Assembly (NCBI GenBank): GCA_013331805.1
Contig: DUFS01000021.1
Location: forward strand, 681 to 18,179
Source of the DNA: Candidatus Micrarchaeota archaeon
GTDB lineage: Archaea; Micrarchaeota; Micrarchaeia; Anstonellales; Anstonellaceae
Length of the DNA stretch: 17,499 bases
Direction: 5' to 3'
The notes beneath the pieces were generated by a model. That model had not been told where the DNA came from. It did no database searches and saw nothing but the letters and a program-made list of their open reading frames with translations. The position numbers and the translations under genes are program-made. The stretch's first letter is position 1. Each line of letters opens with the position of its first letter. Below, piece by piece: positions 17,221 through 17,499 of the stretch.

Positions 17221-17310
17221 ATGCAGATCCCAGAAAAAGCATTCGATGCCCTGGAAATACTCATTGTGGCAATTTCAAGCTGCAGCCCTACTTCGGACAA
17301 GAAAGAATGA
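17221..17310 (+). CDS. Possible 29-aa microprotein (MQIPEKAFDALEILIVAISSCSPTSDKKE)
   Basis: GAGGAG lies 8 nt upstream of ATG 17221, 14 bp after the previous stop. The ORF is too short to be certain. Confidence 0.25.
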   Translation: MQIPEKAFDALEILIVAISSCSPTSDKKE

Positions 17311-17486
17311 GTGCTCCGACCGGGACGACAAACCGCTGGACGGTTTGGCGGCTTTTTCGCAGGGCGAAAATAGGGAGGGGCATGAAATGCTCCGACCGGG
17401 ATGGAGCAATGCGCAGCATTGCGACAGATTTGGAGCGCAGCTCCAAACGGGCGGACACGAACGAATGTGAGTGCTCCGACCGGGAT
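17294..17486. repeat. Tandem copies of the tRNA 3' end separated by structured ~70-nt units
   Basis: TGCTCCGACCGGGA starts at 17312, 17388 and 17472 (the tRNA itself). 17294-17325 and 17452-17485 align with 2 mismatches and one 2-nt gap. Confidence 0.85.
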
Positions 17487-17499
17487 TCGAACCCGGGTT
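17472..17499 (-). tRNA. 3' end of a tRNA gene (T-arm and acceptor strand), probably tRNA-Glu; truncated by the window edge
   Basis: The minus strand reads CCGGG-TTCGAAT-CCCGG-TCGGAGC-A, a canonical T-arm followed by the acceptor strand and discriminator. The CGGAGCA end resembles archaeal tRNA-Glu. The anticodon is outside the window and CCA is not encoded. Confidence 0.85.

Follow-up and report, generated by a model that had tools for sequence, protein, structure and literature searches.

Two-hairpin units between repeated tRNA 3′ ends: a tandem array behind tRNA-Glu(UUC) and an apparent family of miniature insertions in Micrarchaeota

A stretch of 17,499 nucleotides from a Candidatus Micrarchaeota archaeon (GenBank assembly GCA_013331805.1, contig DUFS01000021.1, positions 681 to 18,179 of the forward strand; hereafter the window) closes with the 3′ portion of a tRNA-Glu(UUC) gene, behind which two short hairpin-bearing units and two further copies of the tRNA 3′ end are stacked. 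We lean toward reading this locus as a tandem attachment-site (att) array, in which two miniature, integrase-less elements were inserted by site-specific recombination and are kept as DNA structure. In this lineage, the last 13-15 nt of a tRNA behave like an att core, and nothing smaller than the units was found between such cores. The family to which they belong, made up of miniature insertions at the tRNA-gene entry sites of mobile elements, is widespread and apparently undescribed, and no account of such units was found in the literature searched, with subscription papers and supplements outside its scope. A preliminary description of the window, made from its letters, had named the sight of only two units as its limit; about 90 related units have now been inspected.

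The repeated sequence TGCTCCGACCGGGA occurs at 17312-17325, 17388-17401, and 17472-17485, with periods of 76 and 84. An exact search through the 83 contigs (1,189,147 bases) of the genome returned these three copies and no others. With up to three mismatches allowed, the window holds five matches against 1.68 expected, and the array copies are the only exact ones among them. The three copies, their periods, and the hairpins between them had all been listed in the preliminary description, and every coordinate proved correct on direct reading. The accompanying claim that the repeat is a tRNA 3′ end is also upheld. Copy a (17472-17485, minus strand) reads directly as tRNA nt 60-73 and ends a minus-strand tRNA gene whose 3′ portion (17472-17499) comprises the T-arm CCGGG TTCGAAT CCCGG, the acceptor 3′ strand TCGGAGC, and the discriminator A before it is cut at the contig end. 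A complete ortholog of this gene in the related genome G008 (L010) matches it at 100% identity across the last 30 nt. Aligned to the Rfam tRNA model, the ortholog shows an anticodon loop CUUUC and an intron, and the tRNA at copy a is therefore identified as tRNA-Glu(UUC). The end of the window is the end of the contig, so that the tRNA is truncated and is called neither by ARAGORN nor by Rfam at the gathering score. Rfam 15 likewise gave no match to the window at that score and, at E ≤5, just tRNA-arm fragments at 17471-17499. One Logan contig carries the tRNA-Glu gene past 17499.

In tRNA sense, the array runs from the tRNA through unit B, copy b, unit A, and copy c to a T-rich trailer, and both units accordingly lie 3′ of the tRNA, on its minus strand. 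The tRNA-proximal unit is of type B and the distal one of type A; each is ~60-70 nt long and carries no genes. Unit B opens with a T/C-rich, semi-conserved spacer x (CTCACATTCGTTCG in tRNA sense, 17458-17471), and spacers like it follow copy a at related loci (CTCACTCCGTTCG, CACTTCGTTC, TCTCACTTCGTTCG, and others). It is followed by a short segment, hereafter seg (CGGGCGGACA, or TGTCCGCCCG in tRNA sense; 17448-17457), which is an imperfect inverted copy of tRNA nt 63-73 and pairs with copy b in the DNA fold. Two hairpins, apparent both in the sequence and in the DNA fold, come next. Hairpin 1 (TTTGGAGC-TGC-GCTCCAAA, 17429-17447) and hairpin 2 (GCAATGC-TGC-GCATTGC, 17406-17422) are given here in tRNA sense, their loops reading GCA on the plus strand, and they are joined by the linker TCTGTC (17423-17428), which is near-invariant across the family (alignment A1). 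The junction TCCA (17402-17405), kept as TCCA, TTCA, or TCAA in the family, leads into copy b (17388-17401), an exact copy of tRNA nt 60-73.

Unit A begins with a short spacer TTTCA, a degenerate seg TGCCCCTCCC, and TA (17371-17387). Its seg, which reads GGGAGGGGCA on the plus strand (17373-17382), is complementary to the tRNA end at 7/10 positions, and no tRNA end that matches it was found in the assembled contigs. The type-A core (17326-17370, minus strand) consists of TTTTCGC-CCT-GCGAAAA, the linker AGCCGC, CAAACCG-TCCAG-CGGTTTG, and the junction TCG; on the plus strand, its hairpins read CAAACCG-CTGGA-CGGTTTG (17329-17347) and TTTTCGC-AGG-GCGAAAA (17354-17370). Copy c (17312-17325), again an exact copy of tRNA nt 60-73, forms the distal end of the array. 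The T-rich sequence behind it (17290-17311, CTCATTCTTTCTTG... in tRNA sense) is the displaced native trailer, which resembles the trailer CTAATTCTGTCTATTTTT of the unit-free G008 ortholog.

The two units had been called sequence-unrelated, which holds between A and B but not overall, as each has its own sequence family, in which the linkers and outer stems are conserved. One plan is common to the related units: a spacer and a ~10-nt inverted tRNA-end copy come first, then the two hairpins with a conserved linker between them, and finally a short junction similar to the T-loop end. A BLAST search with the last 300 nt of the window returned unit-like matches elsewhere in this genome and in relatives, and the similar two-hairpin units that the preliminary description had proposed to look for at other tRNAs thus exist. 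At tRNA-Gln of this genome, the last 15 nt of that tRNA stand on both sides of a unit with the plan hairpin-TCTGTC-hairpin-T(T/C)CA, whose seg, GCCCCTcGCG, pairs with the tRNA-Gln end. Six relatives carry the plan, each with its tRNA's own end duplicated. A covariance model of the type-B core (R1), built from eight loci (alignment A1), matches 22/23 genomes of the genus (E ≤0.01) and 38/121 genomes in 16/41 genera of the order (E ≤1e-4), and among twelve loci fetched from outside the genus, the plan stands behind a tRNA 3′ end in ~8. When 185,579 species genomes were scanned with an exact pattern, 74 hits were obtained. Of these, 14 lie in Micrarchaeota/Micrarchaeia records; the other 60, scattered over bacteria and not inspected, agree with an estimate of ~74 chance hits. 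In the viral contigs of IMG/VR, the unit-B pattern was met at three loci, all chance matches, as none has the hairpins.

The association with tRNA genes is close. In 62 of the 76 R1 matches (67 loci), an 11-mer of the 3′ boundary (≤1 mismatch) recurs upstream, mostly 33-42 nt before the core, and this upstream repeat typically consists of the final 13-15 nt of the adjoining tRNA. In 41 of the 62 units, it is preceded by a crude T-loop pattern. Several of the remaining 21, when read by eye, are second units of arrays or stand after T-loop introns. All 62 lie downstream of the tRNA and in its orientation, and the host tRNAs vary (Glu, Gln, Asp, Cys, His, and many more). No upstream tRNA end was seen within the stretch read at a doublet of units in G043 or at the units of G077, G113, G115, and G065. 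As a separate observation, an orthologous type-B unit stands at a non-tRNA site in two genomes (G006:C6:75815 and G020:C3:6649; L017 and L037). It stands upstream of the gene for a small Cys-rich membrane protein, which runs on the other strand, and that gene's Shine-Dalgarno-like region makes up its hairpin 1.

The type-A core has a narrower record. It occurs three times, at three different tRNA ends of this genome (in the window, at C56:20705-20739, and at C60:8244-8276), and in 0/22 other genomes of the genus, although this search used the exact pattern, alignment A3 being off register, and diverged relatives would escape it. The tRNA on C56 carries a type-A unit in this genome and a type-B unit in G005.

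The fold of the units is better than their composition would give. Upon DNA folding, each 73-nt unit forms the two hairpins and a closing stem on either strand (z -3.5 to -5.1), and 0-1 of 200 shuffles fold as well. In unit A, the closing stem needs a G.T pair on the plus strand and is weak on the tRNA-sense strand, where it is missing from the centroid structure. The preliminary description had supposed that structure is what is being selected, and the type-B stems are indeed kept by compensatory change. Across 33 distinct sequences, in an alignment that was fitted to R1 and thereby favors the structure, 97.4% of the stem cells pair and 12/15 pairs vary on both sides. Helix 1 is 100% paired with two-sided change in 6/8 pairs, and helix 2 is 93.9% paired with two-sided change in 6/7 pairs. 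Two-sided changes number 85 against seven one-sided ones, a pattern that 0/500 shuffles match and no slid register comes near. The 461 stem cells comprise 442 Watson-Crick pairs, seven G.T, three A.C, and nine other mismatches; wobble pairs are hence no commoner than the other mismatches (7 versus 12), and neither strand is favored. Such a near-absence of wobble pairs argues for DNA-level or templated pairing and would be unusual for a selected RNA helix. The Watson-Crick covariation of the stems points to DNA hairpins or templated palindromes.

The third stem of the fold is formed by seg, which tends to match the adjoining tRNA end. Its mean complementarity is 5.6 to its own tRNA end and 3.8 to the ends at other loci, and it reaches at least the 90th percentile of the controls in 20/29 loci, being weak or absent at a few. 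When its fit to the two flanking copies is compared where these differ, the proximal copy is fitted better in 11 cases and the distal one in two, with 39 ties, a bias that decay of the distal copy would produce alike.

That tRNA 3′ ends act as att sites had been put forward on general grounds and is supported by another contig of the same genome. C60 starts with a tRNA-Asp-type 3′ end, directly followed by the gene of a 393-aa tyrosine integrase (C60:90-1271), and bears the 13-mer CCCGGTCGGGGCG in one direction at 12, 8184, 8276, 12600, and 14781. Its layout is the tRNA end, an 8.2-kb integrase island, a repeat, a type-A unit, a repeat, a 4.3-kb island, a repeat, a 2.2-kb island, and a repeat. 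The 8.2-kb island harbors the integrase, a CcdA-like gene, and orphans; over the whole of C60:1-14793, the island genes are orphans along with CcdA-like and Schlafen-type (AlbA_2/HATPase_c_4) genes, the latter two in different islands, and the 4.3- and 2.2-kb islands lack an integrase. Since the 13-nt repeats of tRNA-Asp bracket an integrase island, a type-A unit, and two further islands alike, the tRNA-end repeats behave as att cores. At the left end of the C60 island, an inverted tRNA-end copy lies 17 nt in, and at the right end of one 4.3-kb island, there is a type-A-like hairpin.

Similar arrangements recur elsewhere. On C37 of this genome, a 6.2-kb stretch with one giant M6-peptidase gene lies between a tRNA and a type-B unit, and G005:C8 carries a tRNA, an integrase, and two units, in that order. 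Integrase matches were obtained in 12/23 genomes of the genus, with a maximum of 17 in one genome, and a tRNA 3′ end was read by eye ≤230 nt upstream of the integrase open reading frame (ORF) in 11/20 fetched regions. Y1 transposases, which the preliminary description had also proposed to look for, are present in 6/23 genomes and do not track the units. Both G021 and G022 have an island of the integrase-associated type that begins after the distal copy of a unit. With such elements placed after the distal copy, and with one that entered at the distal copy itself in one relative, the earlier suggestion that the copies serve as decoy att sites that protect the tRNA describes at most a side effect. 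The window itself contains no integrase within its 17.5 kb. It belongs to an archaeal metagenome-assembled genome (MAG) of 1.19 Mb with 52.9% G+C, and its proteins include archaeal Nre, RNase HII, and CARDB/PKD surface proteins.

Gain or loss of units, for which the preliminary description had proposed to compare strains, is seen between species. Behind the tRNA-Glu ortholog, G008 has no unit and G014 a single one, against two in this genome. In the sequencing run X3, one Logan contig spans unit A, and another joins the 15 nt preceding copy c directly to the copy at 17388, which suggests a haplotype without unit A. In X3 and X4, the loop of one unit-A hairpin (17336-17340) also differs. In G097, a unit situated just 5′ of the distal Glu copy has a left copy and a seg that match the end of a different tRNA, which is consistent with an element of the form copy, spacer, seg, and hairpins that entered 5′ of nt 60.

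In the proposed mechanism, the tRNA 3′ stretch would be the recombination core at which tyrosine-integrase elements enter in this Micrarchaeota lineage. Insertion would leave the tRNA gene whole and displace its old 3′ end downstream. The units would be inserted singly, by site-specific recombination supplied in trans, or be carried along with larger elements. Their hairpins would matter as DNA rather than RNA structure, perhaps in a folded single strand in which seg and the tRNA-end copy mimic the target duplex, and the units would be co-transcribed passively in the tRNA 3′ trailer. The anatomy, the family, the covariation, and the sharing of the core with integrase islands are observed, whereas we infer the mobilization by an integrase, the single-stranded intermediate, and the order of insertion. 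Among the three options that the preliminary description had offered, mini-cassettes integrated at a tRNA att site come closest to this mechanism; no integron, REP, or Y1-transposase hallmark was found that would favor the likening of these cassettes to attC or REP.

Several points weigh against the integration of miniature elements by site-specific recombination. A double-stranded circle of ~85 bp is a poor recombination substrate. The reaction also needs the right tRNA end beforehand, and yet homologous cores match many tRNAs in both their flanks and their seg, a retargeting for which the mechanism does not account. A staggered-cut duplication accounts for the flanks but not for seg, and an element-borne copy accounts for seg but has to be matched in advance. 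At tRNA-Glu itself, no element with an integrase was found, and units are present in genomes without a detectable integrase (nine units in G020 and seven each in G008 and G011, all incomplete MAGs). The island ends on G005:C8 and the right end of the first C60 island are unlike unit ends, and descent of the units by internal deletion is thus no more than possible. Furthermore, the form without unit A is represented by one contig, and the junction in G097 is equally explained by homologous exchange between units with identical hairpin 2.

A more specific form of the mechanism can be put forward tentatively and with a rather low probability. The units would form a self-contained class of mini-cassettes in archaea and move in a folded, single-stranded form; the tRNA-end copy and seg would make a stem that mimics the target tRNA-gene duplex, with which a tyrosine recombinase could then exchange strands. 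The folded attC site and the attP of the CTX phage offer a likeness to such a folded-unit stem, from which the stem of the units differs in being re-matched to each tRNA.

A different reading treats the units as functional RNAs. They would be co-transcribed with the tRNA and adopt a Y shape, with a closing stem that imitates the acceptor/T-stem helix, and tRNase Z and RNase P would free them as ~75-85-nt mimics of the tRNA tail with a role in tRNA metabolism or regulation. The constant position and orientation of the 62 units downstream of their tRNAs agree with this. So does the placement of T-runs, as a TTTT is found ≤45 nt after the core end in 37/52 units and between copy a and the core in 7/52; the T-run thus follows the final copy and not the tRNA, and the units are therefore probably included in the primary transcript. 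Two unpaired motifs, TCTGTC in the linker and TCCA in the junction, are conserved, and the whole array folds as RNA with z = -3.4. This reading is nevertheless unlikely. G.U pairs are no commoner in the stems than other mismatches, the closing stem of unit A is poor in tRNA sense, and no Rfam family is matched. Unit number differs between species and perhaps within a sample, and the orthologous copies in G006 and G020 lie at a non-tRNA site, on the strand opposite to the membrane-protein gene. An RNA role would, moreover, need no stem that copies the adjacent tRNA. The near-absent G.U pairs and the copies at a non-tRNA site also disfavor the tRNA-mimic small RNAs that the preliminary description had listed as its second option.

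Transposons that make staggered cuts would account for the repeats in another way. Cuts ~14-15 bp apart beside the segment that codes for the T-loop would turn the tRNA-end copies into target-site duplications, with the geometry of a casposase or Cas1, and this would explain why the tRNA's own end stands on both sides of a unit. In most loci read by eye, the duplication, of 13-15 nt or more, starts at T-loop nt 59/60 whatever the tRNA. The A. boonei casposase is reported to produce a 15-bp duplication beside the T-psi-C-loop segment of its tRNA-Pro target, and insertion in tandem is anticipated (PMC5137440). The casposon resembles the present units in its target at the tRNA-gene 3′ end, in a 14-15-bp repeat that begins, at most of the loci read here, by the T-psi-C-loop segment, and in the expected arrays. 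It differs in that no casposase and no terminal inverted repeats were seen here, and in that the 15 bp duplicated in A. boonei follow the tRNA segment (PMC5137440), whereas the tRNA's own last 14 nt are duplicated here.

Staggered-cut transposition is doubtful for further reasons. It leaves seg unexplained, the exact repeat length ranges across loci from 11 to 28 nt, and at tRNA-His and a further tRNA the repeat starts at nt 62-64. Repeats of the same kind also bracket an integrase island, and the unit in G097 has two unlike flanks. Candidate enzymes are sparse, and none tracks the units over the 23 genomes: Y1_Tnp was met in 6/23, a reverse transcriptase in 3/23, Cas1 in 2/23, and a serine recombinase in 1/23. 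Both Cas1 genes stand beside repeat arrays or rows of cas-like genes. GIY-YIG domains occur in 23/23 genomes, mostly in ORFs of ~540-640 aa, which have the size and look of UvrC. As a side observation, this genome has a reverse-transcriptase ORF of ~400 aa at C79:540-1151, RVT_1 being the domain found in 3/23 genomes of the genus.

It is quite improbable that the units are immobile scars or by-products, that is, decayed larger elements, or fold-back or slippage duplications at a fragile tRNA 3′ end that were spread by gene conversion. Perfect tandem doublets of whole units exist in G034, G024, and G043, as slippage or unequal exchange would give, an inverted copy beside a direct copy is what template switching produces, and multi-kb islands without an integrase are likewise bracketed at C37 and C60. 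Random scars would not, however, keep a 55-nt core, a conserved linker, and covarying stems over 16/41 genera, and the cores of type A and type B recur at unrelated tRNAs. An assembly artefact, which the preliminary description had named as a possible refutation and which the position of the array in the last 190 nt of a contig broken inside a tRNA gene might suggest, is practically negligible as an explanation, as parts of the array are present in Logan contigs of four DNA runs, each from a different study (three overlapping ones of run X1 span 17123 to the window end), so that the array is not peculiar to one assembly, and dozens of relatives show the same architecture mid-contig.

Three further candidates were tried and rejected. 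Copying of seg from a mature tRNA primer would be expected to leave traces of the CCA end, but by eye, no TGG precedes seg and no CCA follows the copies in the window, at tRNA-Gln, at tRNA-Asp, or at three other loci. A degenerate tRNA pseudogene does not fit, as seg pairs past the acceptor into the T-stem strand and the same two hairpins occur at unrelated tRNAs. A bulge-helix-bulge (BHB) intron or an alternative 3′ exon was dismissed because the tRNA reaches its full 3′ end before the units begin and TCCA, judged by eye and with no fold search for BHB motifs made, is not complementary to T-loop nt 54-57.

The nearest known counterpart of the array is tandem accretion with integrase-less cis-mobilizable elements (CIMEs) at tRNA 3′ ends. 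CIMEs are described as cis-mobilizable, att-flanked elements without an integrase, for which a three-step accretion model is given (PMC5704250). As in tandem accretion, direct repeats of the tRNA 3′ part bound the elements, which are stacked behind an intact tRNA gene, and integrase-less members stand beside integrase-bearing ones, as on C60. CIMEs are decayed bacterial islands of kb size, whereas the units are 60-70 nt long, gene-free, and marked by conserved linkers and covarying hairpins across an archaeal order. Unlike CIMEs, each unit additionally holds an inverted copy of the att core, and the ends of larger elements, examined for signs of descent, mostly do not resemble those of the units.

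Integrons are similar in a different respect. They are arrays of small units in which structure is kept more than sequence, a core site and an inverted version of it pair, with a mismatch, into a stem, and a tyrosine recombinase would be the candidate enzyme here too. The present array differs in adjoining a tRNA gene and in lacking the integron platform of integrase, attI, and promoter, the R/L-box consensus, and cassette genes; the core of a unit is whichever tRNA end adjoins it, so that there is no shared core consensus. REP, PATE, and MITE elements and the guide-sequence ends of IS200/IS605 are likewise small, non-coding, hairpin-rich, and present in many copies, with a stretch at the hairpin foot that is complementary to the flank. 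Such elements make no long duplications on insertion, those derived from IS200/IS605 entering next to a 4-5-nt target, and they have no link to tRNA ends. The units, in contrast, are flanked by 13-15-nt repeats, and Y1_Tnp is present in 6/23 genomes only. In E. coli tyrT, downstream repeats of 178 bp each carry the tRNA 3′ end, which is a single locus, whereas the units form a genome- and order-wide family at many tRNAs.

The tRNA introns of the same lineage share a boundary with the units. For Micrarchaeum/ARMAN-2, BHB introns are described at T-loop position 59/60 of the tRNAs (PMC3239211), the nucleotides at which the repeats mostly begin, and some relatives have both a T-loop intron and a downstream unit. 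The units differ in that they lie outside a complete tRNA gene, that their TCCA junction shows no BHB complementarity, and that the intron in G014 (L012) shares no unit core. In passing, long, hairpin-rich T-loop introns that end in ...GAAA just before nt 59/60 were seen in many tRNA genes of the genus, among them L012 (G014), L019 (G005), L065, L066, L079, L082, L104, and L112.

Other hairpin repeats were noticed in the genome. A second hairpin-pair family of ~15 copies has the form (A)TGAAAAAnn-loop-nnTTTTTCA-G(A/C)-AGTGGAnn-loop-nnTCCACT-A(C/A)A and is directly followed by the ATGAAAAA(G) of a gene. In this genome it is located at C7:~708, C55:5053, C55:8468, C21:47560-47644, C57:1103, C4:2605, C69:10408, and other sites. 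Several copies are 51 nt long, have ATGAAAAAG on both sides, and keep the frame open. This family shares the plan of copy, inverted copy, hairpin, and copy with the tRNA units, but is positioned at gene starts. A third family, CAG-CATnnnn-loop-nnnnATG-TCTGA-TGCATTTTnn-loop-nnAAAATGCA-CATC, is found in this genome at C8:2817, C60:28556, C68:1908, C46:8724, C59:12129, C81:3876, and C11:18781, and at L016 in G003. Three of its copies lie at ATTC|CACT inside a second-family hairpin and one inside the spacer of a type-B unit; copies within units of other families indicate nested insertions. Over the whole genome, perfect hairpins (stem ≥7, loop 3-7) number 756 against 366 in a mononucleotide shuffle, and CGCA/TGCG and GCA/TGC loops are over-represented among them. 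Contigs C14, C43, C61, C73, C80, and others end in a AAGAAAATCTTAAGGGCTTAC motif or its complement, and another repeat therefore also breaks the assembly.

Textbook knowledge covers the entry of mobile elements at tRNA 3′ ends, but not a conserved, covarying two-hairpin mini-element at these sites across an order of ultrasmall DPANN archaea, whose units copy the tail of each tRNA in direct and inverted form and stack into arrays. The units account for the breakage of MAGs of these organisms at tRNA genes and for the long structured trailers on their tRNA tails. If they are mobilized by integrases, they would be the smallest known hitch-hikers of site-specific recombination and a simple substrate for the study of archaeal integrase specificity. 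Should the folded-strand form of this mechanism be true, they would represent a “programmable” att site whose stem is re-matched to each tRNA, and tRNA tails would turn into growing arrays and landing pads for islands.

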